Assembly: GCA_963718615.1 (NCBI GenBank)
Contig: OY970368.1
Span: forward strand, 2,976,001 to 3,040,000
DNA length: 64,000 bases
Reading direction: 5' to 3'
Source of the DNA: an uncultured cyanobacterium
Lineage (GTDB): Bacteria; Cyanobacteriota; Cyanobacteriia; PCC-9006; JAAUQQ01
Shown here: positions 14,722 through 31,164 of the stretch, in pieces
How the letters are laid out: each line of letters begins with the position of its first letter
How positions within the stretch are numbered: position 1 is the first letter of the stretch
The notes under the pieces: generated by a model
What the model was told of the DNA's origin: nothing
The model's input: only the letters and a program-made list of their open reading frames with translations
Database searches by the model: none
Made by a program: the position numbers and the translations under genes

Positions 14722-15609
14722 ATGATGAATAGGAATACGGCTCAAGCTATGTTCGGTAAAGGCTTGCCTCTCGTCGTTATGACGGCAATAGTGTCGCTAC
14801 CCGCCCAGGCGGCTACCCTGGCCGGTGCCAGTAGTCAGTCCGAATTATTTAACTTTATGCTCAATGGGGTGACCACGTTGCCCCTTTCAACGGATACCGC
14901 AACAGATACCCATACGCTGGTCATTGGTGGAGAATCGTCCGTTGTTAGCGTGAGCGATGCAACTGCAACCTTTCAAGTCGATCCTCCTGTCGCTCAGGCT
15001 CAGTCAATCGGAATTTCCCAAGGCGATGGACCAACCTCGTATTTCGGTTCCGCTGATGGCACAGCAGAAGCCTTGGGGCTCTTTTGGGTGGAGGGTCTGT
15101 TTTCCTTCGATTTCACGTCGGATCTGGAACTGTTGACGAGCCTTGACGATCCGCATTATGAATCCATCTGGGCTACGGGCAGCACGCTGTTTTCACTCTA
15201 TGGATCCGAAAGTCCCGATAGCCAACCTGTCTTGATTGATTTCTTTTCCCTCGATGGTGAGATTTCCTCGACCAGTTTCGGCGATGCCTTAGCAGTAGGC
15301 TATAGCTCTCATATTTCTCTAGCACCAGAGGATTGTAATGCCATCGAGCCCCTGGCTTGCCTGCAGCAAAACGATGGTGGCAATACAGAATCGGCCTTAG
15401 CCCATCTTACAGGCTCCTACGAACGCAATTTTGATACGCCCCTTTGGATTACCCTGGTCAAATCCCAGTTTGTTGCAGCCCAGGTTCAGAAGACGCCAGA
15501 AAGTACCAGCTCTCTTAGCTTTCTGCTACTGCTCGCCTTCGGTGGGTTTCGCTTCGGACACAAATCATCGGCTCGTCCTGCGGATCCTGACATTAGCGTT
15601 GATGAGTAA
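14722..15609 (+). CDS. exported acidic Ser/Thr-rich protein with PEP-CTERM-like sorting signal
   Basis: AGGAG RBS at 14711; signal peptide ending PAQA-A; C-terminal TPES, hydrophobic helix (LSFLLLLAFGG) and basic tail (FRFGHK..R). Confidence 0.7.
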   Translation: MMNRNTAQAMFGKGLPLVVMTAIVSLPAQAATLAGASSQSELFNFMLNGVTTLPLSTDTATDTHTLVIGGESSVVSVSDATATFQVDPPVAQAQSIGISQGDGPTSYFGSADGTAEALGLFWVEGLFSFDFTSDLELLTSLDDPHYESIWATGSTLFSLYGSESPDSQPVLIDFFSLDGEISSTSFGDALAVGYSSHISLAPEDCNAIEPLACLQQNDGGNTESALAHLTGSYERNFDTPLWITLVKSQFVAAQVQKTPESTSSLSFLLLLAFGGFRFGHKSSARPADPDISVDE

Positions 15610-15728
15610 TTTGATGAGTAAAAGGATGGCTTAATCAGCAGGTTCGTGGCCTGTGGAGGCGTTGGACAGGCAAGAGGCTAGGCCAATCGTCCCGTCCTAT
15701 GCCTCTAACTACGCCTCTACAGTAGCGC

Positions 15729-16076
15729 CTATCTACCGGTCCATAGCTCAACGGTTAACGTTGTGGCACTACCCACTAATCCGGTAAAGTTGCCAGCCCC
15801 GTAATAGCCCGCAGAAACGGTTATTCCCTGGGATTGGGCAAAGGCATCGCCTCGGGCTCGGGCGCTGCTCGTGGCATATTGCGCGCCTAGGACTGCTCTA
15901 GTACGAGTATCCGCCCCCGCAAAGCTCACCGTTCCTAGGGCCAAGGAGGATGCATCGGCAAGACCATAACCATAACCCACTGCCACATTGCCATCGGCGG
16001 TTGCTTGAGGTCCAGCTGCACCCTGAAGTTTGGCCGACGCCGCTGGATTGCAGAACTTCAAATCTTGAATCTTCAT
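15729..16076 (-). CDS. double-glycine-type leader small protein (precursor 5)
   Basis: GGAGA RBS then MKIQDLKFCNPAASAKLQGA (20-aa leader) and an Ala/Gly/Ser/Thr-rich core. The leader is shared with four neighbours. Confidence 0.75.
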   Translation of the reverse strand: MKIQDLKFCNPAASAKLQGAAGPQATADGNVAVGYGYGLADASSLALGTVSFAGADTRTRAVLGAQYATSSARARGDAFAQSQGITVSAGYYGAGNFTGLVGSATTLTVELWTGR

Positions 16077-16238
16077 AGGTCTCCAGTCGCTGAAATATCT
16101 TAGCGATCGCAAGGATTATTCGACAGATTTAAGGCTGGGTTCAGCGGTGGGTGATCTCTGGGAGAACTTTTAAGGCTTGCCCCAGAGATAACATAATGAT
16201 GCGTCGAAAGACTAACCGTTGACGCCGAACCCCAAGAT

Positions 16239-16541
16239 TTATTTCGCTAAATTAATCACAGCAACAGAAGCACTGGCGGAGTAAGAACCACCAAGGAATG
16301 TAGCTAGCGCAACTGAATCACCCCGAGTAAAGGAAAAAGTAGGTAGACTGGTATTGTTAATGGCTTCCGCGCTGCCAGTCGCGGCTGCACTATTACTGCC
16401 TGCTAGTGGAGTGTTGATCAAGGTGGTAAAACTGCTGCTGCTGCCAACAGACAAAAGGCGATAGCCTGCGGCTCCCTTCATCTTGGCACCGAGATGAGTC
16501 TGAGAAAGCCTGTCGATGTAGTCTAAATCGGCAATCTTCAT
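16239..16541 (-). CDS. double-glycine-type leader small protein (precursor 4)
   Basis: Leader MKIADLDYID...KMKGA, Ser/Thr/Ala-rich core, GGAGA RBS. Confidence 0.78.
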   Translation of the reverse strand: MKIADLDYIDRLSQTHLGAKMKGAAGYRLLSVGSSSSFTTLINTPLAGSNSAAATGSAEAINNTSLPTFSFTRGDSVALATFLGGSYSASASVAVINLAK

Positions 16542-16635
16542 AGGTATAATTCTCCAGCACTAATTTGATTTTTCTCTTTTGGCTATTAAATTAGCCATTC
16601 TCCAAAAATAATACTCGCTTTAAGAGTGTAAAGAC

Positions 16636-16648
16636 TGCCAAATTGGCA
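16636..16648 (-). promoter_or_regulatory. TGCCA-N3-TGGCA palindrome, copy 1
   Basis: TGCCAAATTGGCA; minus-strand -10 TATTAT (16613-16608) follows after a 22-nt spacer. Confidence 0.65.
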
Positions 16649-16699
16649 ATTTAAAATATTATCTTATCAAGATAGAGCGATCGACAAAAAAATCAGATT

Positions 16700-17530
16700 T
16701 TAACGATGGGCGATGCGGTGATTTTCATTTTTTGCTGCGCCCATAGATCGACTAGAAGATTGGCGGACTAGATTCGGATCTGCAATAATTTCATCTTTTT
16801 CATAATGGACATAGTGACTCAGTTCTCGTTGTAGCCACTCTTGGAAGAGCTGCTCTAGGATACCCTGGCGAACGTCATCTGTTAGTTCCGCCAGTAGAAA
16901 AGATTCTGGTAAAAGCAAATGATAGCCATGTTCCGTTTGAATCGGATAGATTAGTTCGTTAGGATTTGCGCCAAAAACGGCAGCGGCTAGGGCTGCCGGT
17001 AAGGCATTGCGCTGGACTAAACCTTCATAGCCGCAGCGAGACCGCCGTTCTTCATTGACATCATAAATATGAGCTGCCTCATAGAAGCTAATCTCTTCTT
17101 CTTCGACTTGATAAAATAGCTCCTGGGCGAGTTGCTCATAGGGGACGATAATTTGATAGAGCAGCACTTTATCAAAGGTAATTCGATTTTCATAAAAGAA
17201 TTTTTCGACATCTTTTTCAAACAGCGTTTCCTTGAGCTTTTGGATAAGAAGGCGATCGCGAATTCCCTCTTCCCAGTCATTAGGACTAATTCCTTCGCTC
17301 TCCAGCCAGTCAAACGTGTCCGATGCTTTTTCTAGCTTCATTTGACGACGAAGCTGGTCGACTTCGGCCTGAATCTCCTTCTCATCAATGGCCAATTCAT
17401 GACTAGAGGCTTTCTCTTCCACAATCCGTTTTGACAAAATGTGATGGCAAACGGATTTAAATTGGATATTTCGCTTTAGGAAACTCACAATTTGGTCTTG
17501 GCTCACCAACTTTTCTAACGGATTTGTCAT
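16700..17530 (-). CDS. PpiC/rotamase-type peptidylprolyl isomerase-like chaperone
   Basis: SurA-like N-terminal helices plus AQELFYQVEEEEISFYEAAHIY, GYEG and PIQTEHGYHLL. This type is often linked to cyanobacterial peptide-export clusters. Confidence 0.85.
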   Translation of the reverse strand: MTNPLEKLVSQDQIVSFLKRNIQFKSVCHHILSKRIVEEKASSHELAIDEKEIQAEVDQLRRQMKLEKASDTFDWLESEGISPNDWEEGIRDRLLIQKLKETLFEKDVEKFFYENRITFDKVLLYQIIVPYEQLAQELFYQVEEEEISFYEAAHIYDVNEERRSRCGYEGLVQRNALPAALAAAVFGANPNELIYPIQTEHGYHLLLPESFLLAELTDDVRQGILEQLFQEWLQRELSHYVHYEKDEIIADPNLVRQSSSRSMGAAKNENHRIAHR

Positions 17531-17615
17531 AGGTAGGAAGGCTGCGTTTTAGGACGAGTCAAACGTATTCAACAAAATATTAAACTTAGGATATCTCTAA
17601 GTTCGACCTGCGTGT

Positions 17616-17660
17616 GGCCATTTTGGCAACTGCCCTGCCTAGATTTCTGCCAGAATGGCA
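17616..17660. promoter_or_regulatory. TGCCA-N3-TGGCA palindrome, copies 2 and 3, in a divergent promoter
   Basis: GGCCATTTTGGCA (17616-17628) has minus-strand -10 TATCCT at 17593-17588 after 22 nt; TGCCAGAATGGCA lies at 17648-17660. Confidence 0.65.
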
Positions 17661-17743
17661 ACCGGGCTCGGTGCATTTCTGCTTTGATGGAGCCGATGAT
17701 TCTTGCTAAAGCAGGATTACCCTCAATATCTCGGGGTTTGGTC

Positions 17744-20014
17744 ATGACTGCAGGACAGCATTCTGAGACGCGTTCTGAGCCAGAGGTGAAGACTTGCTTG
17801 AAAGCGGCGATCGAGCAGCATCGCGCAGGACAGCTTATTCAGGCGGAGAAGCTCTATCAAAGGGTTCTCCAACATCCGTCCTGCGATCGCCAACAGCGGG
17901 CAGAAGCTTATAATAATCTGGGAATTACCCTCCAGCAGCAAAACAAATGGCAAGAGGCTGCCGGGGCTTATCGCAGGGCGATGGAGGAAATGCCCACCTT
18001 GGTTGAGGCTTACTTCAATTTAGGGACTGTGCTGCAGGCGCAGGAGCGATCTTCAGCAGCTATCCTGGCCTATCAGGAGGCGGTGCAGCTTCAGCCAGAT
18101 TATATTGAAGTGTATTACAACTTAGGTCGGCTTTATCATCAACAGGGATTGCTGTTAGAGGCTGAGCAGACCTATCGACAGGGACTAAACTATCGTCCTG
18201 ATGACGTCGAAGTTCAGAAGGCATTGGGTCATCTTTGTTATGAACAGCATCGCTTGGAAGAGGCACAAAATGCCTATGAGAAAGTGATTCAGATTGATCC
18301 TCAAGATGCTAAGGCTCACTATAGTCTAGGGGTTACTTTAAAAGCTCTGGGAAATTCATCAGCCGCAATTCAAGCCTATGTACAAGCCTTGCGCTGCAAT
18401 CCAGATTATTTTGAAGCCCATAATAATCTAGGGACGCTTCTCCAGGAAGCGGGGCGGTTTGATCTCGCAATTCAGGCCTTTCAGCAGGCGCTTAAGTGTC
18501 AGCCCAACTACGCCAGAGGTTATGCTAATTTGGGGGCTATCCTCAAAAGCCAAAATCGCCTAACGGAAGCGATGAAAGCCTATGGCCAAGCGCTTGTGCT
18601 ACAGCCGAGTTTGTTCCAGGCTCGATTGGGCTTGTGCATCAGTCAACTGCCAATTATCTATGAAAGTGCAGCAGAGGTTGAAGAGCGGCGTGGACAATAT
18701 CATCAACAGTTACAGGCGCTTTTTGACTATTACCAAAAAGCGCTACCTCAGGAACGGGCTGAGGCGGCGCGCGATATTGGCCTAGTCCAGCCCTTTTATC
18801 TCACTTATCAAGGACAAAATGATCGAGAACTCCAGGCTCTATACGGTCAGCTCATGACTCAGCTAATGGCCTGCCGTTTTCCTCAATGGAGTCAACCGTT
18901 GGCAAAACGTAAGGTTCAATCCCATGAGAAGATTCGGGTTGGCATCGTTTCTGGTTTCTTTCATAATCATTCCAATTGGAAAATTCCGATTAAGGGGTGG
19001 GTACAACAGCTAGATCGCGATCGCTTTGAGCTGTGGGGATACTATACCCGTGCAAGACAAGATGAAGAGACAGCGATCGCAGCCCAGTCCTTTGATTCCT
19101 TTATTCAGGGGCCTTTGGCACTAGAAGAATGGGCGAAGTTAATTCAGGCAGATCAGCTTGATGTCTTAATTTTTCCTGAATTTGGCATGGATATGACAAC
19201 CTTGCAGTTGGGATGTTTACGACTTTCTCCCACGCAAGTGACGTCCTGGGGACATCCAGAAACGAGTGGTTTGCCGACGATTGACTATTGCCTCAGTAGT
19301 GACTTGATGGAACCACCCCAGGGGCAAGAATATTACACAGAAAATCTTGTCCGGCTGCCAAATCTGTCCATTTATTATGAACCTTTAGCGCTTTCCATAG
19401 ACAGGATTTCTAAAGCAGATATTGGTCTTGAAGAACAACAGACTCTCTATTGGTGTTGTCAATCACTTTACAAATATCTACCCCAGCATGATGATATATT
19501 TCCACGTATTGCAAAGCAAGTCGATCATGCTCGCTTTGTGTTTATCGCTCATCATAGCGATCCGGTAAATGAAGTTTTTCGAAAGCGATTACATCTTGCT
19601 TTTCAAGCGGAAGGTCTTGATCATGAAACCTATTGCATATTTTTACCTGAGATGAAGGTTAATCGCTTTGCGGGCGTTGCTGCGATCGCTGATGTTTTTT
19701 TGGATAGCTTAGGCTGGTCAGGGTGCAATTCAAGTTTTGAGTCTTTGGCCCACCAGACGCCAATTGTGACTTGTCCTGGAGAACTGATGCGTAGTCGTCA
19801 TACCTTGGCAATATTGAAAATGATGGAGCTTGAGGAGGCGATCGCCTATGACAAGTCAGAATATATCAGGATCGCGATCAGACTTGGGCTAGATCCGGTG
19901 TATCGGATGTCCATCGCCCAAAAAATTGCTATGAATAGGCATCGACTTTATTGGGATCTTGAAGCGATTCAGGCTCTAGAAGCCTTTTTGTTAGAATCAG
20001 TCGAACAAGTATAG
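17744..20014 (+). CDS. TPR-repeat GT41 (OGT/SPINDLY/HMW1C-type) protein glycosyltransferase
   Basis: About 8 TPRs, then KIRVGIVSGFFHNHS, LDVLIFPEFGMD, QVTSWGHPETSG, CQSLYKY and DVFLDSLGWSGCNS. ATG 17744 is preferred because the track start overlaps the palindromes. Confidence 0.88.
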   Translation: MTAGQHSETRSEPEVKTCLKAAIEQHRAGQLIQAEKLYQRVLQHPSCDRQQRAEAYNNLGITLQQQNKWQEAAGAYRRAMEEMPTLVEAYFNLGTVLQAQERSSAAILAYQEAVQLQPDYIEVYYNLGRLYHQQGLLLEAEQTYRQGLNYRPDDVEVQKALGHLCYEQHRLEEAQNAYEKVIQIDPQDAKAHYSLGVTLKALGNSSAAIQAYVQALRCNPDYFEAHNNLGTLLQEAGRFDLAIQAFQQALKCQPNYARGYANLGAILKSQNRLTEAMKAYGQALVLQPSLFQARLGLCISQLPIIYESAAEVEERRGQYHQQLQALFDYYQKALPQERAEAARDIGLVQPFYLTYQGQNDRELQALYGQLMTQLMACRFPQWSQPLAKRKVQSHEKIRVGIVSGFFHNHSNWKIPIKGWVQQLDRDRFELWGYYTRARQDEETAIAAQSFDSFIQGPLALEEWAKLIQADQLDVLIFPEFGMDMTTLQLGCLRLSPTQVTSWGHPETSGLPTIDYCLSSDLMEPPQGQEYYTENLVRLPNLSIYYEPLALSIDRISKADIGLEEQQTLYWCCQSLYKYLPQHDDIFPRIAKQVDHARFVFIAHHSDPVNEVFRKRLHLAFQAEGLDHETYCIFLPEMKVNRFAGVAAIADVFLDSLGWSGCNSSFESLAHQTPIVTCPGELMRSRHTLAILKMMELEEAIAYDKSEYIRIAIRLGLDPVYRMSIAQKIAMNRHRLYWDLEAIQALEAFLLESVEQV

Positions 20015-20157
20015 AGTCAATTTTGCCAAGCGTCGAATCGTCATAAGATTTCAATACGCTGACCGCCCTAGTCTTATCCAAAAAGATATGTTTGTAATTT
20101 TATTTTTTCTTTAGAAAAATAATCAAATTAGATATTGTTTTGATCGCGAAAAGAAGA

Positions 20158-20198
20158 TGCCAAAATGGCAACATAGCGTGATAGAAGATTCGTATATT
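20158..20198 (+). promoter_or_regulatory. TGCCA-N3-TGGCA palindrome, copy 4, with -10 box
   Basis: TGCCAAAATGGCA (20158-20170), a 22-nt spacer, then TATATT (20193-20198). Confidence 0.65.
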
Positions 20199-20258
20199 GG
20201 TTGCAGTGAATCGAACAGATTCCTGGCTTAAGTTCCTACATCAACGGGAGAAACTCCA

Positions 20259-20549
20259 ATGATTATTTCTGATCTTTCCTACCTGGATAACGTTGCTGAA
20301 GAGCAAGTTGTGGGTGGTTTTTCGTTTAGTGCTAACAAGAATGTCGACATCAGCATCGGTGTTAACGAAACCATCAACATCAACAAGAATGTCAACTCTG
20401 CTGTGAACATCAGCGGCAACCTCGCAACGGCTGAGTCTGGCGCAACTGCTTTCGGCAACAACACCATTGCTGAAGCCTTTGGTTTCACCTACACGGATGC
20501 TGGTAGCTCTGCTGCTAACGCCTTCTCCGTTTCCGCTACCAACGACTAA
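20259..20549 (+). CDS. double-glycine leader small protein (precursor 1)
   Basis: GGAGA RBS; leader MIISDLSYLDNVAEEQVVGG (20 aa) and a 76-aa Asn/Ser/Thr/Ala-rich core. Confidence 0.88.
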   Translation: MIISDLSYLDNVAEEQVVGGFSFSANKNVDISIGVNETININKNVNSAVNISGNLATAESGATAFGNNTIAEAFGFTYTDAGSSAANAFSVSATND

Positions 20550-20559
20550 TTAATTAGTC

Positions 20560-20585
20560 ATTCCGAGGTCTTCGGTCCTCGGAAT
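20560..20585 (+). terminator. cUUCGg stem-loop after precursor 1 (stabiliser or partial terminator)
   Basis: ATTCCGAGGTC-TTCG-GTCCTCGGAAT, one mismatch in the stem. Confidence 0.65.
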
Positions 20586-20664
20586 TGTTTGGTCATTATG
20601 GCAGGTTTGAAAAACAGATTGCCATTCTTTTATTCCCTTAATTTCCACTTGAAGGAGAACTCCA

Positions 20665-20955
20665 ATGATTATTTCTGATCTTTCCTACCTGGATAACGTT
20701 GCTGAAGAGCAAGTTGTGGGTGGTTTTTCGTTTAGTGCTAACAAGAATGTCGACATCAGCATCGGCGTCAACGAAACCATCAACATCGACAAAAATGTTA
20801 CCTCCGTTGTAAGCATCAGCGGCAATCTCGCAACAGCTGAGTCTGGCGCAACTGCTTTCGGCAACAACACTATTGCTGAAGCCTTTGGCTTCACCTACAC
20901 GGATGCTGGTAGCTCTGCTGCTAACGCCTTCTCCGTTTCCGCTACCAACGACTAA
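20665..20955 (+). CDS. double-glycine leader small protein (precursor 2, near-identical duplicate of precursor 1)
   Basis: 92 of 96 aa identical to 20259-20549; GGAGA RBS. Confidence 0.88.
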   Translation: MIISDLSYLDNVAEEQVVGGFSFSANKNVDISIGVNETINIDKNVTSVVSISGNLATAESGATAFGNNTIAEAFGFTYTDAGSSAANAFSVSATND

Positions 20956-20966
20956 TTAATTAGTCA

Positions 20967-21438: not shown

Positions 21439-21443
21439 GAACG

Positions 21444-24400
21444 ATGAATCAGCTTAGGCATAATGCAGCTTTTTCCATGGATACAGTTGTGCTGAATCAT
21501 CAAGTTGCTGTAGTGACTGGAGGAGGAAGGGGTCTGGGTCAAGCCTATGCCTTAGCCTTAGCCACATCGGGTGCAAAAGTTGCGGTGATTGCTCGTTCTT
21601 TCCAACAGCTTGAAGACACTGTTAACGCTATTCAAACTTTAGGTGGGCAGGCGATCGCTATTCCTGCTGATGTCACGGAGCCGAAAACCTGCGAGCAGGC
21701 GATCGCTCAAATTCAGGATCAGCTAGGGCCGATTGACCTGCTGATTAACAATGCCGGTGTGTTTACGCCCATTGGTCCACTGTGGCAGACTTCGCCCCAG
21801 GATTGGTGGCAAACCCTTGAAGTCAATCTTAAAGGCTCCTTTCTATATAGCCATGCCATTCTATCGTCAATGGTGGCTCGTCAACAGGGTCGCATTATTA
21901 ATGTGGTGAGTGAGGCAGGTCTCTTAGGAATTCCTTACTGTTCATCCTATGGGGTTAGCAAAACGGCGCTAATTCGCTTGAGTGAAACCTTGGCTTTAGA
22001 GGCTGCGACCCACAACGTCTACATTTTTGCACTGGATCCTGGAGCCGTTCGAACGACGATGACCGATATTCGGCATTCCCCTGAAGCGCAACAGTGGATT
22101 CCCTGGTGTAATCAAGCCTTTGGGCAGAATCAAGACGTTTCCCTGCAACGGGTTGCTGATGTGATACTACGTCTAGCTTCGGGTCAGTACGACGCTTTGT
22201 CAGGGCGATATCTTCATGCAACAGATGACCTAGCGGCTTTGCTTCAGAAAAGTTCAGAAATTCAAAACCAGCAAGCCTATGTTCTTCGACTAGGTCGATT
22301 AGACCTACCTCTTGTGTCAACAACTCCTATTGATGAGCTTTTGCAACAGGCGATCGCAGTAGAGCCGCAGGATATTGACCAAGCCCAACAACTCTATCAT
22401 CGTATACTAACGGCACAGCCCCATCATCAGGATGTTCTTTATCGCCTCGGTCATTTAGCCCAGCGCCAGGGTCAGCCGAAAGAGGCTATGCAATGGTGGC
22501 AAAGGCTTTTGAATGTCAACTCCCATTCGCTTAAAGCCTGGTTTAGCTTAGGCAATCTCTATCAGGCTGAAGGAGATTTACAGGCTGCTGAAATGGCCTA
22601 CCGTCAAGCCCTTGTGCTTCAGCCACAGCAGGGAGTTCTCTACAATAATTTAGGTTATGTGCTTCATCAACAGACTCGACTTGATGAAGCTATTGTCTGT
22701 TACCAAACGGCTCTAAAACTTCAACCGACCAGTGTCGAAACCGAGGCTAATCTCGGTCACACATTACAGGCACAGGGAGAGCTCTCTTCAGAACAACAGG
22801 CCTATTATGGAGCGCTCAATTATCGGTTGGGTGTTCATCGGCATCAGAGGGGAGATAAAGCAACTGCGGAAGTTTATTATCGACGGGCGATCGCTCTAGA
22901 TCCTACCGTAATTGATTTTTATCTCTCTCTGGGTCAACTATTGCAAGAACAGTGCAAGTTGGATGAAGCGATCCTATCCTTAGAAAAGGCTCTGGTCCTG
23001 CTTGGCGCTCAGTCTCAGGCCCAAACTCAAGTCCAAGCTCCAACCCAACCTCAACCTCAGAAACCTCAGATTCAATCTGAACAACGCCAGACTCAAGAGA
23101 TTAAAACCTATTTTAAACTCGGTCAGCTCTACCAATATCAACGTCAACTGAAGAATGCCGTTGTGATGTATCGGCAGGGGCTGATTCTGGCGAATCCTCA
23201 CTATGCTCAAGCGATCGCAGCCCAGCCTGCTCATGCTAGCGAATTGGTGACCGACGTTCCCACGACACCTTCTATTTCACTCGGAGAAGTGAGGGTGGGA
23301 GACTATCTATTTCCTGCAATTCCTGCGGTTCAAGACTTGGAAACCTCTCGACCTTTTTGGTCTGTTGTAATTCCGGTTTATCGTCGTACGGATTATGTAT
23401 TGGAGGCGATCGCCAGTGTGCTCAGGCAATGGCCTGGCCCAGCAGCTATGGAAATTTTGGTAATGGATAATGCCAGCGATCCACCTCTGTTCGAATGGGT
23501 AAATCAGCTCGGTCAAGGAATTATTCGTTACTATCGTAATTCTCAAAATGTGGGTGTAGTCAACAACTCTAACCTAGGCATTGCTCTGAGTCGAGGGCAA
23601 TGGATTCACGTTCTGCATGATGATGATTGTGTTTTGCCCGGATTCTATCAGAATCTTCAAGCGAGTTTAGAGTCTTGTCCGGACTCTGTTGGAGTTGCCT
23701 GCACTGGCTTTGAATATTTTGATGAGATGGGCAATGCTTTAGAGACTGGCGAAGTCAGTTCAATCTACGGTTCCAATCGGGGGATCATGCAAGATTGGCT
23801 AGCTCGGATTGGAGTCTGTGGTTTGGTGACGATTCCTGCCATGGTGGTGCGTCGCGCAACCCATGAACATTTGGGTGGGTACTATCCGGCGTTGCCAGAA
23901 ATTGCGGACTGGGAAATCTTTAAGCGTTATGCGTCCTTTTATGATTGGTGGTACGAGCCAGGAATTTTAGCCCGTTATCGTGAACATACGCGAAAAATGA
24001 CGCCGGAGAATTGGCGCACGGGAACCATCGCAGAATCAATTCGCTTGGCGATCGAAGTGTCTGATAGCTATTTTCCAGAAGCGCAGCGTCAGGCGATTTC
24101 GCTCAGTGCACGTCGTCATAATTTTAACTATTGCCTGAGTCGGTTATCTATTCCGTTAGAAATGGGCAATCAGGCCGGTGCCCTGCGAATTTTGCGAGAG
24201 GTTCTCAAGATTGATCAGTCGACGGCAGCGATCGCCAAGCTCTTGACTTGGTTGAAGGAAAAGCAAGCAGAGCCGATACGCGAACTCATTTTCTCTCAAC
24301 TATTCTCCCTAAATAGCGAGACTGAAAAATCGAGCAGAGTAGAATTATCCCAAAATCCTTTGCTTTCCTGTGCCGCTAATCAATCAACTTTTTCATCTAG

Positions 24401-25457
24401 TTCTCAGTCCATAACGATTGGCAATACTCAGTTTCCGGCAATTCCTCCCCTACCCACCATTGCGGTTGAACGACCCTTTTGGAGCGTTATTATTCCGGTC
24501 TATAATCGGATTGATTATCTATCCGAATGTCTGAACAGTGTGCTTTCCCAGGATCCTGGAGCAGACAGAATGGAAATTCTAGTCATGGACGACGCTAGTC
24601 TGGAATTATCGGAGACAATTCATGCTCTAGTCAGCTCCTTAGGAAAAGGCCGGGTGCGTTATTTTCGCAATGCCCAGCGTCAAGGTTTACCCGGTAATTG
24701 GAATTGTGGACTTTTGCATAGTCGGGGTCAATGGATTCATGTGTTGCATGATGATGATTATGTACTTCCCGGATTCTATAACCATCTCCAGAAGAGCTTA
24801 GAAGATGCTCCAGTTTCTGTCGGTGCTGCATTTACGGGTTACGAAAATATTGATGAAGCAGGAAAGACAATCTTTACCCGTAGTTATGGGGATTCCCAGG
24901 GTATTGTGCAAAATTGGCTTCAAACCATTGGCGTTTCTAATCCTTTAAATATGCCTGCCGTTGTCATCCGTCGTTCGGTCCATGAGCAGCTTGGGGGATA
25001 TCATCCTCAACTGACCTATACCAGCGATTGGGAGCTGTACAAGCGGATCGCCTCTTTTTATGATTGGTGGCATGAGCCTGGAATTTTGGCGCGGTATCGT
25101 GAACATCGTCAAAGTAAGACTTCGGAGCTTTTTCTCAGTGGTGCTCAGGTGGATTCGATTCGACAGGCGATCGAGATATCTACGGGATATCTTCCTGCTG
25201 AGTGTAATGAATATGTAACCGAAAAGTCGCGCCAGTACTACGTTGCTTACTGTTTGAAGCTTGCATCAATTCCGCTTCAGGCCGGAATGACAGAAAATGC
25301 TTGGAGACTCGTTCAAGAAACATTCAAAATTGATCAATCTCCAACCTCAGTCTCTCGGTTCTTTGACTGGCTAACCCAGACTGATCAATCGTTAATTCAG
25401 TCAGAATTTCTGCCTAGACTTATAGATTTAGAATTGGATAAAGGTCGTCTGCAATGA
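21444..25457 (+). CDS. SDR oxidoreductase-TPR-GT2-GT2 fusion protein
   Basis: SDR motifs TGGGRGLG, NNAG and YGVSK; TPR block; two GT2 domains each with RPFWSV.IPVY...WIHVLHDDD...DWE. Confidence 0.85.
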   Translation: MNQLRHNAAFSMDTVVLNHQVAVVTGGGRGLGQAYALALATSGAKVAVIARSFQQLEDTVNAIQTLGGQAIAIPADVTEPKTCEQAIAQIQDQLGPIDLLINNAGVFTPIGPLWQTSPQDWWQTLEVNLKGSFLYSHAILSSMVARQQGRIINVVSEAGLLGIPYCSSYGVSKTALIRLSETLALEAATHNVYIFALDPGAVRTTMTDIRHSPEAQQWIPWCNQAFGQNQDVSLQRVADVILRLASGQYDALSGRYLHATDDLAALLQKSSEIQNQQAYVLRLGRLDLPLVSTTPIDELLQQAIAVEPQDIDQAQQLYHRILTAQPHHQDVLYRLGHLAQRQGQPKEAMQWWQRLLNVNSHSLKAWFSLGNLYQAEGDLQAAEMAYRQALVLQPQQGVLYNNLGYVLHQQTRLDEAIVCYQTALKLQPTSVETEANLGHTLQAQGELSSEQQAYYGALNYRLGVHRHQRGDKATAEVYYRRAIALDPTVIDFYLSLGQLLQEQCKLDEAILSLEKALVLLGAQSQAQTQVQAPTQPQPQKPQIQSEQRQTQEIKTYFKLGQLYQYQRQLKNAVVMYRQGLILANPHYAQAIAAQPAHASELVTDVPTTPSISLGEVRVGDYLFPAIPAVQDLETSRPFWSVVIPVYRRTDYVLEAIASVLRQWPGPAAMEILVMDNASDPPLFEWVNQLGQGIIRYYRNSQNVGVVNNSNLGIALSRGQWIHVLHDDDCVLPGFYQNLQASLESCPDSVGVACTGFEYFDEMGNALETGEVSSIYGSNRGIMQDWLARIGVCGLVTIPAMVVRRATHEHLGGYYPALPEIADWEIFKRYASFYDWWYEPGILARYREHTRKMTPENWRTGTIAESIRLAIEVSDSYFPEAQRQAISLSARRHNFNYCLSRLSIPLEMGNQAGALRILREVLKIDQSTAAIAKLLTWLKEKQAEPIRELIFSQLFSLNSETEKSSRVELSQNPLLSCAANQSTFSSSSQSITIGNTQFPAIPPLPTIAVERPFWSVIIPVYNRIDYLSECLNSVLSQDPGADRMEILVMDDASLELSETIHALVSSLGKGRVRYFRNAQRQGLPGNWNCGLLHSRGQWIHVLHDDDYVLPGFYNHLQKSLEDAPVSVGAAFTGYENIDEAGKTIFTRSYGDSQGIVQNWLQTIGVSNPLNMPAVVIRRSVHEQLGGYHPQLTYTSDWELYKRIASFYDWWHEPGILARYREHRQSKTSELFLSGAQVDSIRQAIEISTGYLPAECNEYVTEKSRQYYVAYCLKLASIPLQAGMTENAWRLVQETFKIDQSPTSVSRFFDWLTQTDQSLIQSEFLPRLIDLELDKGRLQ

Positions 25458-26524
25458 ATATTAATTTTTGGCAAGGAAAACGGGTTTTAGTCACTGGGCA
25501 TACTGGTTTTAAGGGCAGTTGGCTGTCGCTGTGGTTACAATCCATGGGGGTCGAATTGTTAGGGTATGCTTTGCAGCCTCCGACAAATCCTAGTCTCTTT
25601 GAAGTGGCAAGCGTTGCAGAAGGGATGACCTCAATTCTTGGAGATGTCGGAGACGCTCAGCATTTGCATTCGGTATTGGCTGAGTTTCAGCCGGAAATAG
25701 TGCTACATCTTGCAGCTCAGTCCGTTGTTCACACGTCCTATTTAGATCCAGTTACTACCTATCATTCAAATGTGATGGGGACTATCTATCTGCTCGAAGC
25801 GATTCGCCAAGTTCCCAGCGTTCGCTCGGTTGTCATTGTGACTTCAGATAAATGCTATGAAAACCGAGAATGGGTTTGGGGCTATCGAGAAACAGATACG
25901 CTAGGGGGCTATGATCCTTACAGCAGCAGCAAAGCCTGTGCTGAACTCGTTACCGCTGCCTATCGCAATTCTTTTTTTAATCCCAATGACTACGCTGAAC
26001 ATGGTGTGGCGATCGCCACAGCCCGAGCTGGAAACGTCATTGCTGGCGGCGATTGGACTGCGGATGGATTAATTGCAGATATTGTCCGTGCGCTGCTACA
26101 AAACCAGATTGTTCAAATTCGCAATCCCTATTCAACCCGTCCTTGGCAGCATGTCTTGAATGCCCTAGAGGGGTATCTTACTCTTGCAGAAAGACTTTAC
26201 TGCCAAGGCATTGCTTTTACGGGGGCTTGGAACTTTGGTCCCTATGAATCTTTTGTTAAACCTGTCGGTTGGATTGTCGAACAAATGCTTACGAGTTGGG
26301 GTGAGGGTAGCAGTTGGCAAGCGAATCAAACTCAATATTTTCATGAGCAAATTGCCTTGAGCCTAGATAGTTCAAAGGCACGATTCAAGCTGAACTGGCG
26401 GCCTCAGCTTTCCTTAGAAGACTCTCTAGATCAGATCATTTCCTGGACTAAAGCATATCGAGCCCAAGAAAATATGCGGCAAGTCAGTCTGGAAACTATT
26501 GCTCAGTTTCTGCGGAAAAGTTGA
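25454..26524 (+). CDS. rfbG: CDP-glucose 4,6-dehydratase
   Basis: Motifs VTGHTGFKGSWL, TSDKCYEN, DPYSSSKA and RPWQHVL; ATGA overlap with the upstream gene. Confidence 0.93.
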   Translation: MNINFWQGKRVLVTGHTGFKGSWLSLWLQSMGVELLGYALQPPTNPSLFEVASVAEGMTSILGDVGDAQHLHSVLAEFQPEIVLHLAAQSVVHTSYLDPVTTYHSNVMGTIYLLEAIRQVPSVRSVVIVTSDKCYENREWVWGYRETDTLGGYDPYSSSKACAELVTAAYRNSFFNPNDYAEHGVAIATARAGNVIAGGDWTADGLIADIVRALLQNQIVQIRNPYSTRPWQHVLNALEGYLTLAERLYCQGIAFTGAWNFGPYESFVKPVGWIVEQMLTSWGEGSSWQANQTQYFHEQIALSLDSSKARFKLNWRPQLSLEDSLDQIISWTKAYRAQENMRQVSLETIAQFLRKS

Positions 26525-26563
26525 TCTTCTGCCAAATTTAAATCTTTTTCTTGCTCAAAATTC

Positions 26564-27850
26564 ATGACAGCTCATTCCTTAACCCCCTCCTTATCCCGAG
26601 ATACAATTGGCCTAAACAAAGTTTCTCAGTGCCAGTTTTGCCACACGCCACTGCAGCATACGTTTGTCGACTTAGGCATGTCTCCTTTGTGCGAAAGCTA
26701 CATCAGTGTTGATCAACTCAATCAAATGGAGCCTTTTTATCCGCTTCATGTCCGCGTATGTCATCATTGTTTCTTGGTTCAGCTAGAAGCTTATGTAAGC
26801 CCGGAAGAAATTTTTACGGAGTATGCTTATTTTTCATCCTATGCAGATACTTGGCTTAAGCATTGCCAAGCCTACACAGATATGATTATTGAGCGATTTC
26901 AGCTCGGTCAAAACAGTCAGGTGATTGAACTGGCGAGTAATGACGGTTATTTACTTCAGTACTTTATCGAACGTCAGATTCCGGTATTGGGCATTGAACC
27001 TGCTAGCAACATTGCGAAGGTGGCGATCGCCAAAAATATTCCTACACTCAACGCCTTTTTTGGTAAGACCTTAGCCCAAACCCTTGTACAGCAAGGACAA
27101 CAAGCAAATCTCATCGTCGCCAACAATGTCCTCGCCCATGTTCCTGATTTGAACGATTTTGTCGCAGGAATTAAGACACTGCTGAAACCTCAAGGGGTTG
27201 CGACCGGAGAGATTCAACATTTGTTGCGCTTAATGGCCTCTAATCAGTTTGATACGATTTACCATGAGCACTTTTGTTACCATACGTTGACAACGCTAGA
27301 AACTATCTTTTCAGCCCATGGCTTGACTCTATTTGATGTGGAAGAATTGCCGACCCATGGAGGCTCATTACGAATCTATGCGAGACATCTAGAAGATCAG
27401 TCTAAAGCCCTGAGCGATCGCCTAGTCCATCTCAAACAGCGAGAACAGGACGAGGGATTCACCTGCCTAGAACGTTACGTTAACTTTGATGAGCAGGTTC
27501 GAGAAACGAAACGTAAGCTCATTGAGTTTTTGATTCAGGCTAAACGAGCGGGGAAACGCATTGCAGGATATGGTGCTCCCGGCAAGGGTAACACACTATT
27601 AAATTACTGTGGTATTCGTACAGATTTTTTAGATTATACGGTCGATCGCAATCCTTATAAGCATGGTAAGTTTTTGCCGGGAACCCATATCCCTATTTAC
27701 GCACCTCACAAAATTCTAGAAACTAAGCCTGACTATGTCCTAATTTTGCCTTGGAATTTCAAAGAAGAAATCATGGAGCAAATGAGTTCGATTCGTACCT
27801 GGGGTGGTCAGTTTTTGGTGCCTATTCCAGAGCTTACTGTCTATTCTTAA
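26564..27850 (+). CDS. NDP-hexose C-methyltransferase (class I SAM, Zn-binding N-terminus)
   Basis: Motifs CQFC...VCHHC, ELASNDG, IYHEH, THGGSLR, GYGAPGKG and ILPWNF. Confidence 0.88.
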   Translation: MTAHSLTPSLSRDTIGLNKVSQCQFCHTPLQHTFVDLGMSPLCESYISVDQLNQMEPFYPLHVRVCHHCFLVQLEAYVSPEEIFTEYAYFSSYADTWLKHCQAYTDMIIERFQLGQNSQVIELASNDGYLLQYFIERQIPVLGIEPASNIAKVAIAKNIPTLNAFFGKTLAQTLVQQGQQANLIVANNVLAHVPDLNDFVAGIKTLLKPQGVATGEIQHLLRLMASNQFDTIYHEHFCYHTLTTLETIFSAHGLTLFDVEELPTHGGSLRIYARHLEDQSKALSDRLVHLKQREQDEGFTCLERYVNFDEQVRETKRKLIEFLIQAKRAGKRIAGYGAPGKGNTLLNYCGIRTDFLDYTVDRNPYKHGKFLPGTHIPIYAPHKILETKPDYVLILPWNFKEEIMEQMSSIRTWGGQFLVPIPELTVYS

Positions 27851-27895
27851 TGCTCAATGATTTTATTGACTCCTTTAGAAGGGAAGTAAGATTGA

Positions 27896-29254
27896 ATGAT
27901 AAAATCTATGCCTTTAACGATCAATACTTTACATCTCGATGACTCACCATCTATCGGCTTAGATCTGCACGAACTCATCACAGAGCTATATCCCATTTGC
28001 CGTAGTATTACGGGGAACGGCGTTCGAGAATCCCTTAAAATCCTCCAAAACCACATTCCTGTCAAGATGTTTGAAGTGCCAAGTGGTACACCGGTGTTTG
28101 ATTGGATTGTTCCTCAGGAATGGAACATTCGTGAGGCATATGTGAAAAATAGTCAGGGAGAAAAGATTATTGACTTTAGAAAATCTAATCTACATGTTCT
28201 AAACTACAGCATACCGATTCACCAAAAAGTGTCATTGCAGGAACTAAAAGAGCATCTCTTTAGTATTCCTGAACATCCAGAATGGATTCCCTATCGTACC
28301 TCCTATTATCGAGAGAACTGGGGCTTTTGCCTCAGCCATCATGAGCTTCAATCTTTAGAAGAAGATGAGTATGAAGTTTTTATTGATTCATCCTTAGAGA
28401 AGGGCTCGCTGACCTATGGAGAATATTATCTACCAGGACAACATCAAGACGAAATTATCCTATCTTGCCATCATTGCCATCCTTCGCTTTGCAATGATAA
28501 TTTGTCTGGAATGGCGGTTACAGCCTTTGTGGCTCGTTATTTGACTACGCTTACAGAACGGCAGTATTCTTATCGCTTCTTGTTTATTCCGGGAACCATC
28601 GGCTCTATCACCTGGCTGTGTCTTAATCAACAGAAAACTCAGTACATTAAACATGGCTTAGTAATTTCAGGCGTCGGTGATTCTGGAACGATCACCTATA
28701 AAAAAAGTCGTCGAGGCAATGCTGAAATCGATCGGGCTGCTATACAGATCTTGAAGGATACAGAGATGACCTATCAGATTGAGCAGTTTTCTCCCTATGG
28801 ATATGATGAACGGCAATATTGCTCACCAGGATTTAACTTACCCGTGGGTCGTTTTAGCCGAACTCCCTTTGGTCAATATCCTGAGTATCATACGTCCGCC
28901 GATAATCTTAATTTTGTAAAAGCTGAATCACTCGAAGCCTCTTATCTAAATATTGTAAATGTTCTTGATCTATTAGAAAACAATTTTATATACATTAATA
29001 CCCATCCTTATTGTGAACCTCAGCTAGGCAAACGGGGATTGTATGGTTCTGTGGGTGGAGAACAGGAAAAGAAAAGTCAAGAGATGGCGATTCTTTGGAT
29101 TTTAAACCTTTCGGATGGTAAGCATTCACTGCTCGATATTGCTGAGCGTTCTGGTCTAAAATTTGCACAACTTCAAGCGGCTGCTCAGACATTGTACCGC
29201 TCTGGGCTATTAATCTACTCAAATTCATCTGTTTTGGAGGAAAATTTAAAATGA
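27896..29254 (+). CDS. DUF4910 (M28-like fold, DUF2172 and wHTH) protein
   Basis: Motifs LYPICRSITG, IPYRTSYY, CHPSLCNDNLSG, GYDERQY, YHTSADN and EPQLGKRGLY. Confidence 0.85.
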   Translation: MIKSMPLTINTLHLDDSPSIGLDLHELITELYPICRSITGNGVRESLKILQNHIPVKMFEVPSGTPVFDWIVPQEWNIREAYVKNSQGEKIIDFRKSNLHVLNYSIPIHQKVSLQELKEHLFSIPEHPEWIPYRTSYYRENWGFCLSHHELQSLEEDEYEVFIDSSLEKGSLTYGEYYLPGQHQDEIILSCHHCHPSLCNDNLSGMAVTAFVARYLTTLTERQYSYRFLFIPGTIGSITWLCLNQQKTQYIKHGLVISGVGDSGTITYKKSRRGNAEIDRAAIQILKDTEMTYQIEQFSPYGYDERQYCSPGFNLPVGRFSRTPFGQYPEYHTSADNLNFVKAESLEASYLNIVNVLDLLENNFIYINTHPYCEPQLGKRGLYGSVGGEQEKKSQEMAILWILNLSDGKHSLLDIAERSGLKFAQLQAAAQTLYRSGLLIYSNSSVLEENLK

Positions 29255-30096
29255 AAGTTGTTCTATTTTGTGGTGGCCTTGGAACAAGGCTGCGAGAATA
29301 TTCTGAAACGATTCCTAAGCCCATGGTAGAGATCGGCTATCGACCTATAATCTGGCATTTGATGCGATATTATGCATACTTTGGTCATAAGGACTTCATT
29401 CTGTGCTTAGGTTACAAAGGTGATTATATTAAGGAATATTTTCTCCATTACAATGAATGTCTCTCTAATAACTTTACGCTCTCCAAGGGCGGCAGAAGTA
29501 TTGAGCTACATTCCAGCGATATTGAGGATTGGACGATTTCATTCGTTGATACGGGTCTTCAATCTAATATTGGTCAGCGCTTGATGGCTGTAAAACCTTA
29601 TCTTAAAGATGAAGAAGTTTTTCTCGCTAACTATGCAGATGGTCTCAGCGATCTAGATCTGGATCTTTACCTTGATCATTTTGATGCACAAGATAGGGTT
29701 GCAAGTTTTCTGGCAGTACAGCCCTCCCAATCATTTCACGTTGTCTCCCTCAATGGTGAATCTCAGGTAGATAAGATCCAACCTGTTGGTGCTTCTGATC
29801 TGTGGATTAATGGAGGATTCTTTGCATTTAAGCAAGCGATATTTGACTATATTAAACCGGGTGAGGAGTTAGTTCTAGAACCTTTTCAACGATTGATTCA
29901 ACGAAAAGAGCTAATCGCCTATCGTAATCCTGGCTTTTGGGCCTGCATGGATACGTTTAAGGAGAAAATGATGCTTGATGAAATGTATGCATCAGGCAAG
30001 ACGCCTTGGGCGCTTTGGGAAAAGGAGCGTCAACTACATCGTTATCCTGGGGCAACGCTGGGTGAAACTCACCGCCAGCAGCATGCCAATGTATAG
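29251..30096 (+). CDS. rfbF: glucose-1-phosphate cytidylyltransferase
   Basis: Motifs FCGGLGTRL, PKPMVEIG, WINGGFF and GFWACMDT; ATGA overlap. Confidence 0.85.
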   Translation: MKVVLFCGGLGTRLREYSETIPKPMVEIGYRPIIWHLMRYYAYFGHKDFILCLGYKGDYIKEYFLHYNECLSNNFTLSKGGRSIELHSSDIEDWTISFVDTGLQSNIGQRLMAVKPYLKDEEVFLANYADGLSDLDLDLYLDHFDAQDRVASFLAVQPSQSFHVVSLNGESQVDKIQPVGASDLWINGGFFAFKQAIFDYIKPGEELVLEPFQRLIQRKELIAYRNPGFWACMDTFKEKMMLDEMYASGKTPWALWEKERQLHRYPGATLGETHRQQHANV

Positions 30097-30131
30097 ATTT
30101 TCATTGATGCTTAGTTTCCAGCTTAGTTCCC

Positions 30132-30791
30132 ATGATTCAACTCTTGTCCTCTTCCCAAGCCCCCAGGTCTCTTCGCTGTGTGCTTTGCTTAGGAGCACAC
30201 AGTGACGATATTGAGATCGGCTGTGGAGGAACGATCCTAAAACTCATTGAACAGTTTCCTGATCTAAGTTTTTATTGGGTTGTTTTTGGGGCATCGGGTG
30301 CTCGCGAAGCAGAAGCGATCGCCAGTGCCCAAACCTTTTTGAAGGATGCTAAGCACAGTAAGGTCATCGTCAAGGAATTCCGAGATGGTTTTTTCCCTTA
30401 TTCTGGCATTGATATTAAAGAAACTTTCGAACAATTAAAACAAGAGATTTCTCCGGATTTGATTTTCACCCATTATCGTCATGATGCCCATCAAGACCAT
30501 CGCCTGATCGCAGAGCTGACCTGGAATACCTTTCGCGATCACTGGATCTTAGAATATGAAATCCCAAAATATGATGGTGATTTAGGTCAACCTAATACCT
30601 TTACTCATTTAAGTGCTTCCATTTGCGATCGCAAAATTTCGTATTTGATGCAATTTTTCTCGACCCAGAAAAATCGAACTTGGTTTGATGAAGATACTTT
30701 CTGTTCAATTATGCGATTGCGAGGCATTGAATCTAACTCACCGAGCAACTATGCGGAAGCTTTCCATTGTCGTAAGACAATTTTATTTTAA
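30132..30791 (+). CDS. PIG-L/LmbE-family deacetylase
   Basis: Metal-binding motifs GAHSDDIEIGCGG and HQDH. Confidence 0.88.
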   Translation: MIQLLSSSQAPRSLRCVLCLGAHSDDIEIGCGGTILKLIEQFPDLSFYWVVFGASGAREAEAIASAQTFLKDAKHSKVIVKEFRDGFFPYSGIDIKETFEQLKQEISPDLIFTHYRHDAHQDHRLIAELTWNTFRDHWILEYEIPKYDGDLGQPNTFTHLSASICDRKISYLMQFFSTQKNRTWFDEDTFCSIMRLRGIESNSPSNYAEAFHCRKTILF

Positions 30792-31146: not shown

Positions 31147-31164
31147 GCGGTCTCACGGAAACCT

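Follow-up and report, generated by a model that had tools for sequence, protein, structure and literature searches.

A cyanobacterial gene island joins small double-glycine-leader proteins to TPR-fused glycosyltransferases and predicted branched-sugar genes

We analysed a 64-kb stretch of the genome of an uncultured cyanobacterium (contig OY970368.1; this whole stretch is called the window, and all coordinates are numbered within it). The locus of interest, at 14.7-30.8 kb, is an island in which five small open reading frames (ORFs) with a leader peptide lie among genes for a PpiC-like rotamase, for glycosyltransferases fused to tetratricopeptide repeats (TPRs) and for sugar biosynthesis. Our preferred explanation, which taken as a whole we consider moderately probable, is that cyanobacteria widely share a system for exporting small leader-bearing proteins and that the island is a form of it. 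Its components differ in strength: the export logic is very probable, glycosylation of the cargo is probable on the evidence of gene content, and a role of the products in a fibre or matrix is tentative.

Three of the small ORFs lie on the plus strand: precursors P1 (20259..20549; 96 amino acids, with a 20-residue leader ending in GG and a 76-residue core), P2 (20665..20955; 96 amino acids, 96% identical to P1) and P3 (21142..21438; 98 amino acids, 49% identical to P1). Two further small leader-bearing ORFs with putative cargo products, m1 (15729..16076; 115 amino acids) and m2 (16239..16541; 100 amino acids), lie on the minus strand. In a five-way alignment M1, I3, D5 and L6 were invariant and position 8 was always aromatic; the leader ends in GG in the plus-strand ORFs and in GAAG in the two minus-strand ORFs. 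All five cores are 74-93 residues long, of low charge and without cysteine, with 16-23 serine plus threonine residues and a combined S/T/N/A/G fraction of 0.54-0.64. We built a hidden Markov model on 116 family leaders and scanned the whole host genome with it in six frames. P1-P3 were recovered (E 5e-9, 6e-9 and 2e-4), the next match was a HetP-like protein beside an exporter (E 1.1), and m1 and m2 were not recovered at E<=10. Judged by their sequences, P1-P3 are one clear family. What m1 and m2 have in common with them is the short M-x-I-x-D-L-x-(F/Y) pattern and the composition; both are downstream of the PpiC gene. The weakest member of the set is m1, with no homologue at 1e-5 in the 77 related loci described below (tblastn). 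A search of 30 relatives with m2 gave weak homologues in two of them, at E 4.5e-6 and 1e-4: one is flanked by a P-family gene and a PpiC gene (G006), and the other adjoins a P-family gene, with PpiC elsewhere on the same contig (G008). The preliminary description of this DNA had all five ORFs sharing a leader; the pattern and the cysteine-free cores do extend to all five, but a single family is confined to P1-P3.

Nearly identical GC-rich stem-loops start 11 bp past the stop codons of P1 (20560..20585, plus strand; 9 pairs) and P2 (20967..20990, plus strand; 10 pairs, 7 of them G-C); P3 has no such structure after it. Their function could be attenuation or the stabilisation of mRNA, giving a high ratio of subunit to enzyme.

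The P family extends well beyond the window. A first word-indexed search found 22 relatives; when 1.84 billion representatives were searched exhaustively with a profile, 433 clusters matched at E<=1e-3, 149 of them at E<=1e-10. The leader consensus M-I-I-S-D-L-N-Y-L-E ... V-V-G-G opens nearly all listed short members (85-125 amino acids); the GG-ending leader is conserved over the family alignment, and the core carries the conserved motifs G-N-L-A-x-A-E and A-x-A-x-G-x-N-T. Further small families (p7, p8, c25 and c28) share this leader, although their cores are related distantly or not at all: with hhalign, P and p8 aligned over the leader and one motif, and P and p7 over the leader only. Without a leader, the P core also stands at the N terminus of acidic proteins of 277-569 amino acids (the set P0035, P0048, P0055, P0067, P0069, P0113 and P0105), some of which have repeats that, read by eye, look RTX-type (GGxGxD-like) or SdrD-like, and it is internal, at residues 826-891, in one protein of 1109 amino acids. 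Because the leaderless core heads acidic proteins, some with such repeats, we favour a structural role over that of a peptide antibiotic. Names were looked up for 10 distant P-core clusters, and none was informative.

Two further features of these relatives concern their N termini. Several of the leaderless P-core proteins start with M-G-D-I, which is exactly the start of the would-be cleaved core. In P0100, P0136, P0138, P0144, P0157, P0167 and P0171 a Sec-type signal is followed by E-P-M-x-L-T-x-x-Q-M-D-x-V-T-A-(A)-G and then by the P core, an arrangement that would amount to two export signals in series, Sec signal and GG-type leader.

To place the island among its relatives we used a scan of one genome per species, which gave 147; 77 loci were kept, the titles of which were all cyanobacterial or unassigned metagenome-assembled genomes. 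The ORFs of all 77 loci were clustered and the cluster representatives annotated. The P-family cluster was present in 72 of the 77 loci, PpiC in 60, RTX-repeat proteins in 57, a C39-ABC transporter with a cyclic-nucleotide-binding (cNMP) domain in 52, HlyD in 52, TPR proteins in 51, and HetP-like proteins with an internal leader-like motif in 29. Among loci of at least 18 kb (n = 45), PpiC was found in 43, the ABC transporter in 41, HlyD in 38 and RTX proteins in 37. The usual gene order opens with ABC - HlyD - (HetP-like) - PpiC - P - TPR enzyme - RTX. The preliminary description had tied the leader proteins to PpiC, TPR-glycosyltransferases and sugar genes, and co-occurrence across the 77 loci bears this out: GT41 is present in 30, GT2 in 17 (always with GT41) and a C-methyltransferase in at least 6, which rules out the lack of co-occurrence that was to refute the linkage. 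These gene neighbourhoods support a functional linkage of the leader proteins to all three. We do not ascribe the co-location to chance, because neighbourhoods of TPR-glycosyltransferase and P genes recur, because GT41 and GT2 are fused in some loci, and because the island GT41 is the only one in its host.

In Nostoc-type clusters, a Nif11-like leader peptide with a proline-rich core and a radical SAM/SPASM enzyme are encoded between the RTX genes (L012:12266-12682 and L012:13634-14899; also L004, L010, L024 and L058). By its gene content the pair looks like a second module in the same cluster, of a kind resembling RiPPs (peptides made on the ribosome and modified afterwards).

The first glycosyltransferase gene of the island encodes a TPR-GT41 protein glycosyltransferase (17744..20014, plus strand; GTG 17612 is a possible start). 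It matches PF13844 at 67.5 bits (cut-off 25) together with multiple TPR families, has at least 7 TPR repeats, and matches human OGT, plant SPINDLY, T. terrenum OGT and XcOGT in the PDB over both its TPR and catalytic parts. SPINDLY, a GT41 enzyme, transfers fucose, a 6-deoxyhexose. The island gene is the sole GT41 gene in the 6.1-Mb host genome and ends 245 bp before the start of P1. Where a GT41 catalytic domain occurs in the related loci, it is no more than 700 bp from a P gene in 25 of 30 cases. GT41 was found in 21 of the 22 loci with the P proteins nearest to those of the window (L004-L025) versus 9 of the 55 remaining loci, a contrast inflated by the relatedness of the loci.

A different acceptor for this enzyme is conceivable. 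Two ORFs with a TPS domain follow the island (31165-34236 and 34441-37623), and GT41 could serve their products as HMW1C serves the HMW1 adhesin of Haemophilus; HMW1C-type enzymes are members of GT41, and the island enzyme has a weak match to the NCBIfam model NGTferase. That match, to the NGT-type GT41 without TPR (NF049992), reaches 37.2 bits against a cut-off of 1000, however, and the combination of TPRs and catalytic domain is that of OGT and SPINDLY. Moreover, the first TPS protein was found by tblastn in 0 of 77 loci, compared with 30 for GT41, and the TPS genes are outside the low-GC island. We consider this explanation very unlikely. HMW1C-like N-glycosylation of the P proteins themselves was also considered and dropped: the N-N-T at core positions 67-69 varies at its first N and so fails as a conserved N-x-S/T sequon.

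The second glycosyltransferase gene encodes an SDR-TPR-GT2-GT2 fusion of 1337 amino acids (21444..25457, plus strand). P3 ends at 21438, which confirms the 5-bp gap noted previously. The protein has an adh_short domain at residues 20-208, TPRs at about 300-450, and then two Glycos_transf_2 stretches. The GT2 region gave 14 PDB hits at E<=0.01, all of them generic GT2 enzymes, with lipid-linked-glycan and polysaccharide enzymes as the best matches. GT41 was present in all 17 of the related loci with GT2, and the distance from GT2 to the nearest P gene (276-9313 bp) was looser than that of GT41. In L041, L043, L052 and L078 the two domains are in one ORF by tblastn, with Pfam confirmation for L041. 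GT4 enzymes occur in 4 of 77 loci. All GT41 and GT2 hits in the 77 loci belong to a TPR-containing cluster, and 4 of 5 GT4 hits are TPR-fused. A fourth enzyme family is treated likewise: a TPR-fused FemAB-like GNAT (Acetyltransf_6) is encoded in 20 of 77 loci, with zero overlap with the glycosyltransferase loci (L030, L036, L040, L042, L045-L047, L055, L057, L058, L061, L063-L065, L074, L075 and L080 are among them; L064:9041-10807 is an example). This pattern suggests that, on a shared chassis, the TPR-GNAT tailors by other means, through acylation or aminoacylation. A TPR-glycosyltransferase or a TPR-GNAT is present in 50 of the 77 loci, and the attachment of TPRs to four enzyme families points to protein acceptors rather than lipid or polysaccharide.

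Downstream of the fusion gene, and also on the plus strand, are the five genes of the putative sugar cassette: a CDP-glucose 4,6-dehydratase, rfbG (25454..26524; TIGR02622, 481.7 bits, cut-off 278), an NDP-hexose 3-C-methyltransferase (26564..27850; PF08421 + PF13489 + PF08484), an M28-peptidase-like DUF4910/DUF2172/HTH_47 protein (27896..29254; Pfam), an rfbF-like glucose-1-phosphate cytidylyltransferase (29251..30096; TIGR02623, 237.9 bits) and a PIG-L family de-N-acetylase (30132..30791; PF02585, 58.3 bits). The methyltransferase gave full-length matches to the solved 3-C-methyltransferases MtmC (4rv9, 2.9e-80), KijD1 (5t64) and TcaB9; the 4rv9 alignment spans residues 19-425 of 428 and covers both the Zn-binding N-domain and the C-terminal domain. 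The DUF4910 protein matches PDB entry 3k9t, a 'putative peptidase', at 4e-154. A C-methyltransferase gene lies beside P in at least 6 of 77 loci (L006, L008, L009, L018, L041 and L043), in most of which it is accompanied by rfbF and/or the dehydratase. Several of these loci end at the cassette, at the limit of the flank taken; two were extended, from Scytonema and Nostoc P943, and both run C-methyltransferase, rfbF, PIG-L and then DUF4910, at 60-68% identity to the island (60-62% for DUF4910 and 64-67% for PIG-L); in Scytonema, but not in Nostoc P943, an SDR gene separates PIG-L from DUF4910. The predicted product is CDP-3-C-methyl-6-deoxyhexose, although we regard this sugar class as evenly poised between right and wrong. 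All of the elements described between 14.7 and 30.8 kb were found at the coordinates given here in the ORF list and by Pfam/NCBIfam, in agreement with the genes named in the preliminary description (PpiC, TPR-GT41, the fusion, rfbG, C-methyltransferase, DUF4910, rfbF and PIG-L).

A set of rfbF, rfbG and C-methyltransferase genes is characteristic of O-antigen loci. In the island, these genes and the GT2 domains might build a polysaccharide or lipid-linked glycan, such as an exopolysaccharide (EPS), a lipopolysaccharide O-antigen or a sheath, or might glycosylate some other protein, for example the RTX proteins or a 303-residue protein encoded in the island; proximity to the P genes would then reflect a shared surface function and not that the P proteins are the substrate. 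The PDB matches of the GT2 region and its looser distance from P fit such a role, and EPS export genes and other glycosyltransferases are present elsewhere in the window. Set against this, TPR fusion is a protein-binding architecture; GT2 is never found without GT41 (0 of 17 loci) and is fused to it in four; and the module travels with the P family across distant cyanobacteria. In addition, a scan of the island ORFs with Pfam/NCBIfam brought up neither a priming transferase nor a flippase, a polymerase or a polysaccharide ABC exporter. A polysaccharide or other non-P acceptor is in our judgement unlikely.

Returning to export of the P proteins, the island encodes a PpiC/SurA-like rotamase (16700..17530, minus strand; PF00639, 37.8 bits) that scores 53 bits with the 'peptide maturation system' model TIGR04500, under the cut-off of 180. 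Identity to the gene at the syntenic place of relatives is 60%. Like all of the island enzymes when their sequences are read, the rotamase lacks a signal peptide; it is presumed to be a cytoplasmic chaperone of the cargo. No C39-ABC transporter or HlyD gene was found within the 64-kb window. The host genome has five C39 matches, the strongest of which is a cNMP-C39-ABC transporter of 1087 amino acids, with genes for HlyD, an RTX protein and a HetP-like protein around it (G000:C1 1.463-1.471 Mb). Another long transporter, in which the C39 domain is weak, adjoins a PpiC paralogue at 5.80 Mb. The C39-ABC exporter invoked in the preliminary description therefore has a counterpart in the host, in the form of a long C39-ABC/HlyD pair, but not in the window, from which that pair is about 1.5 Mb away.

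The HetP-like protein of the host, 170 amino acids long, is encoded between HlyD and the long C39-ABC transporter (L081:9556-10068; G000:C1 ~1.4645-1.4651 Mb). Near its C terminus it has an internal I-S-D-L-x-H-L ... G-G motif followed by about 9 residues, and similar proteins are those counted above in 29 of 77 loci.

At the start of the island lies a gene for an accessory, presumably secreted protein of 303 amino acids (14722..15609, plus strand; GTG 14698 opens the ORF and ATG 14722 is the likely start). It had zero Pfam/NCBIfam hits. Its residues 62-255 are 32% identical (E 2e-12) to the N-terminal domain of an RTX protein from a Nostoc JL33 cluster, homologues were found in 19 of 77 loci by tblastn, and it has a putative signal-like hydrophobic stretch at the N terminus and a PEP-CTERM-like tail at the C terminus.

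We propose the following route. The cargo would be P1-P3, and probably m1 and m2 too, each with a double-glycine-type leader of about 20 residues and held by the cytoplasmic PpiC-like chaperone. The TPR arrays of the glycosyltransferases (one GT41 and two GT2 domains) would dock on the precursor, and the enzymes would O-glycosylate serine and threonine residues of the cargo in the cytoplasm. Priming by GT41 and extension by GT2, as supposed in the preliminary description, is a candidate order for this step. The donor could be made from glucose-1-phosphate by way of CDP-glucose (rfbF) and CDP-4-keto-6-deoxyglucose (rfbG), with 3-C-methylation by the MtmC/TcaB9-type enzyme and a last keto-reduction, by the SDR domain or the methyltransferase itself, to CDP-3-C-methyl-6-deoxyhexose. 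The cNMP-C39-ABC transporter and HlyD encoded 1.5 Mb away would then export the modified cargo and cleave it after GG. Outside the cell the cargo may be a glycoprotein component of the surface or matrix, possibly a fibre, with parallels in the CT pilus and EbfG proteins discussed below.

Several observations weigh against this proposal as a whole or against single steps. The C39-ABC/HlyD pair is unlinked to the island in the host. Neither a TPR-glycosyltransferase nor a TPR-GNAT was found in 27 of 77 loci, including 15 of the 45 long ones; glycosylation is therefore best seen as an optional module of the system. The rfbF-like protein falls below its NCBIfam cut-off (237.9 versus 300 bits), and the fusion has an SDR domain of the classical (FabG) type, whereas NDP-sugar reductases usually have the extended one. 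A polysaccharide role of the sugar genes is made possible by EPS export genes (Wzz/BY-kinase-like and Wza-like) 17-22 kb downstream. The frequency of serine or threonine at core positions 77-94 is 0.72-0.96 in GT41-linked P proteins versus 0.30-0.62 in others, an enrichment confounded by relatedness. Finally, AlphaFold2 gave no confident fold for P, which leaves the fibre role without structural support: models of P1 had a pLDDT of 58 with a 23-row alignment and 50 with a 121-row alignment, and showed only a leader helix or a C-terminal hairpin. Foldseek with the P1 model, itself of low confidence, found nothing in the PDB at E<=0.001. A search of the PDB sequence set with the P, p7 and p8 profiles gave no match either, to the CT pilin entry 9BTQ or to any further chain; in six queries of that set, with these profiles or single sequences, 9BTQ was not found at E<=10.

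The pairing of such a leader with a C39-ABC transporter is also the logic of class II bacteriocins and of glycocins. In the latter (sublancin, with SunA/SunS/SunT, and glycocin F), the peptide is glycosylated in the cytoplasm by a GT2-type enzyme with a helical peptide-binding domain and is then exported and cleaved by a C39-ABC transporter; the cores are short, cysteine-rich, disulfide-stapled hairpins. The island products might accordingly be glycosylated antimicrobial peptides, large glyco-RiPPs or glycocin-like bacteriocins, made by the same biosynthesis and serving in killing or signalling. A cluster of PF28158 (CTB, cyanobacterial tandem bacteriocin) is listed by the ESM Atlas at rank 12 with a score of 0.85, which is a lead only; Pfam gave no PF28158 match at E<=0.01, in a copy possibly older than the model. 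The cores argue otherwise: at 74-93 residues, without cysteine and of low charge, they are unlike short disulfide-stapled glycocins. The island, furthermore, has a GT41 enzyme and a branched-sugar pathway in addition, and no SunS-like chain is among the 14 PDB hits (E<=0.01) of the GT2 region. The P core heads large adhesin-like proteins, 57 of the 77 loci of the family also encode RTX proteins, and nothing immunity-like came up among the ORFs in the Pfam/NCBIfam scan. An antimicrobial function is in our view quite unlikely, even though clusters with the same export core have been classed as bacteriocin clusters (PMC3140520).

Those clusters, groups I and II of Wang, Fewer and Sivonen (PLoS One 2011, PMC3140520), are described as having a GG-leader precursor, SurA/PpiC, a long CAP_ED-C39-ABC transporter and HlyD, and in group II several precursors and 'other modification enzymes'. 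The island shares with them the double-glycine-type leader and a SurA/PpiC gene within the cluster and differs in having no long C39-ABC transporter and HlyD in the cluster, although these are linked to P in 52 of the 77 other loci. The strings 'glycosyl' and 'TPR' each occur 0 times in the main text of that paper, the Table S2 of which, with its list of extra domains, may name them. A literature search of a limited collection found no paper that links GG-leader/C39 export with TPR-glycosyltransferases in cyanobacteria.

Of the systems described so far, the nearest to the island is the cyanobacterial tubular (CT) pilus of Microcystis aeruginosa (Ricca et al., Nat Commun 2025, PMC12397347). Its pilin (MrpC/BH695_0841, PDB 9BTQ) is described as carrying ten O-linked monosaccharides, eight with a residue mass of 174 Da and two with one of 160 Da. 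In that account a paralogue resembling the pilin is encoded in the cluster too, as are an FkbM methyltransferase, beta-rich surface proteins and, next to the pilin gene, an O-GlcNAc transferase; the sugars are read as processed or trimmed O-linked N-acetylglucosamine (O-GlcNAc), and biogenesis and secretion of the pilus are declared unknown (PMC12397347). The terms 'leader', 'ABC transporter' and 'double-glycine' have 0 occurrences in its main text. The likenesses to the island are a small secreted protein with an adjacent paralogue, an adjacent gene of GT41 type, beta-rich accessory surface proteins, and O-glycosylation of serine and threonine with single sugars, which for the island is a prediction. 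An N-terminal segment is also missing from the mature pilin, to judge from its mass of 12,348 Da and residue numbers that run to Ser138. Mono- and dimethylated 6-deoxyhexose residues have masses of 160.07 and 174.09 Da, and 2 x 160.07 + 8 x 174.09 gives 1712.9, compared with a reported 1712; the sugar masses of the pilus thus match the methylated 6-deoxyhexose class predicted for the island. There are differences too, among them the missing profile match to 9BTQ given above. The mature core is 76 residues in P versus about 12.3 kDa in the pilin, and P has no predicted C-terminal helix-turn-helix, although its models are of low confidence. FkbM is absent from the Pfam hits of the island, the sole methyltransferase of which is of the 3-C-methyltransferase type, and the island has two TPR-GT2 domains and a CDP-sugar pathway in addition.

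Two other systems resemble parts of the proposed route. EbfG1-4 of Synechococcus elongatus PCC 7942 are exported by the C39 transporter PteB and form an amyloid-like matrix (PMC9981879); like the island products they are several small GG-motif proteins encoded in tandem, their C39-peptidase export and matrix rather than antibiotic role are what we propose for the island, and the passages on them report no glycosylation or adjacent TPR-glycosyltransferase. FlmG of Caulobacter is a cytoplasmic O-glycosyltransferase with an N-terminal domain that binds the flagellin substrate (PMC7591256). As described there it is modular, acts before export on the subunit of a secreted filament and uses an unusual sugar from neighbouring genes, as the island enzymes would in the proposed route; unlike them it belongs to another glycosyltransferase family and uses pseudaminic acid, and its substrate leaves by the flagellar type III secretion system.

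The preliminary description had known of no pathway with this combination. That was too broad for the export chassis of GG leader, PpiC and C39-ABC transporter, which is that of the group I/II clusters of 2011, and for the GT41-adjacent O-glycosylated pilin, which is known from the CT pilus; what appears to be new here is the cargo family, the explicit link between leader and export, and the dedicated 3-C-methyl-6-deoxyhexose pathway.

A wider reading would join these systems, and we put it forward as doubtful. One leader (M-I-I-S-D-L-x-Y-L-E ... G-G) would both dock interchangeable TPR enzymes (GT41, GT2, GT4 and FemAB-like GNAT) and address the precursor to a cNMP-regulated C39-ABC/HlyD exporter; the P proteins would be a new class of glycosylated fibre or matrix subunit with 3-C-methyl-6-deoxyhexose directly on serine or threonine, perhaps placed by GT41 in the manner of SPINDLY; and the same chemistry and route would explain both the 160/174-Da sugars and the secretion of the CT pilus. 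If our interpretation of the island is right, 'bacteriocin-like' GG-leader clusters, EbfG and the CT pilus would be one export-and-tailoring scheme across much of the phylum. The CT pilus would gain a concrete candidate for its secretion route and one for its sugars, methylated 6-deoxyhexoses derived from CDP-glucose in place of trimmed GlcNAc. TPR-fused enzymes would be marked out as tailoring modules that recognise leader or cargo, which is relevant to protein glycoengineering and to cyanobacterial mats, sheaths and blooms.

The composition of the island sets it apart from its surroundings, with a GC content of 0.40-0.50 (window ~14000-32000) compared with 0.52-0.57 for the adjoining 10 kb on each side. 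PPK2, the 303-residue protein, PpiC and small leader proteins are syntenic in one relative from the host's family, but the P protein there is much less like that of the window (profile E ~1e-8). The best matches to the window P are from Nostoc, Scytonema and the filamentous cyanobacterium CCP5, at 62-72% identity; G006 and G010, relatives within the host's family, reach ~41-42% identity to P1. Members of the P family turned up in 3 of 7 genomes from within that family and in none of the 23 other families sampled in the class. We infer from these comparisons, in which the window P proteins are nearest to sequences of Nostocales, that the module of GT41, P genes, fusion and sugar genes was probably acquired laterally into a resident PpiC/cargo locus.

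Beyond the island, in DNA of normal GC content, the TPS-domain ORFs encode filamentous-haemagglutinin-like proteins of 1023 and 1060 amino acids (31165-34236 and 34441-37623), and a TPR-CHAT protein of 884 amino acids follows, the TPS/CHAT block as a whole occupying 31165-40247. Further along are an IS605-type TnpB gene (45142-46329), the Wzz/P-loop (BY-kinase-like) gene (47945-50176), the Wza-like polysaccharide export gene (52019-53632) and a gene for a PMT-family glycosyltransferase with a TPR (56102-58636). Among sequencing runs, no RNA run was listed as containing the stretch, and three metagenome DNA runs contain small shares of it. At the other end of the window, an AcrB-family transporter of 951 amino acids (837-3692, minus strand) has a LysM match at residues 520-566, an unusual insertion.

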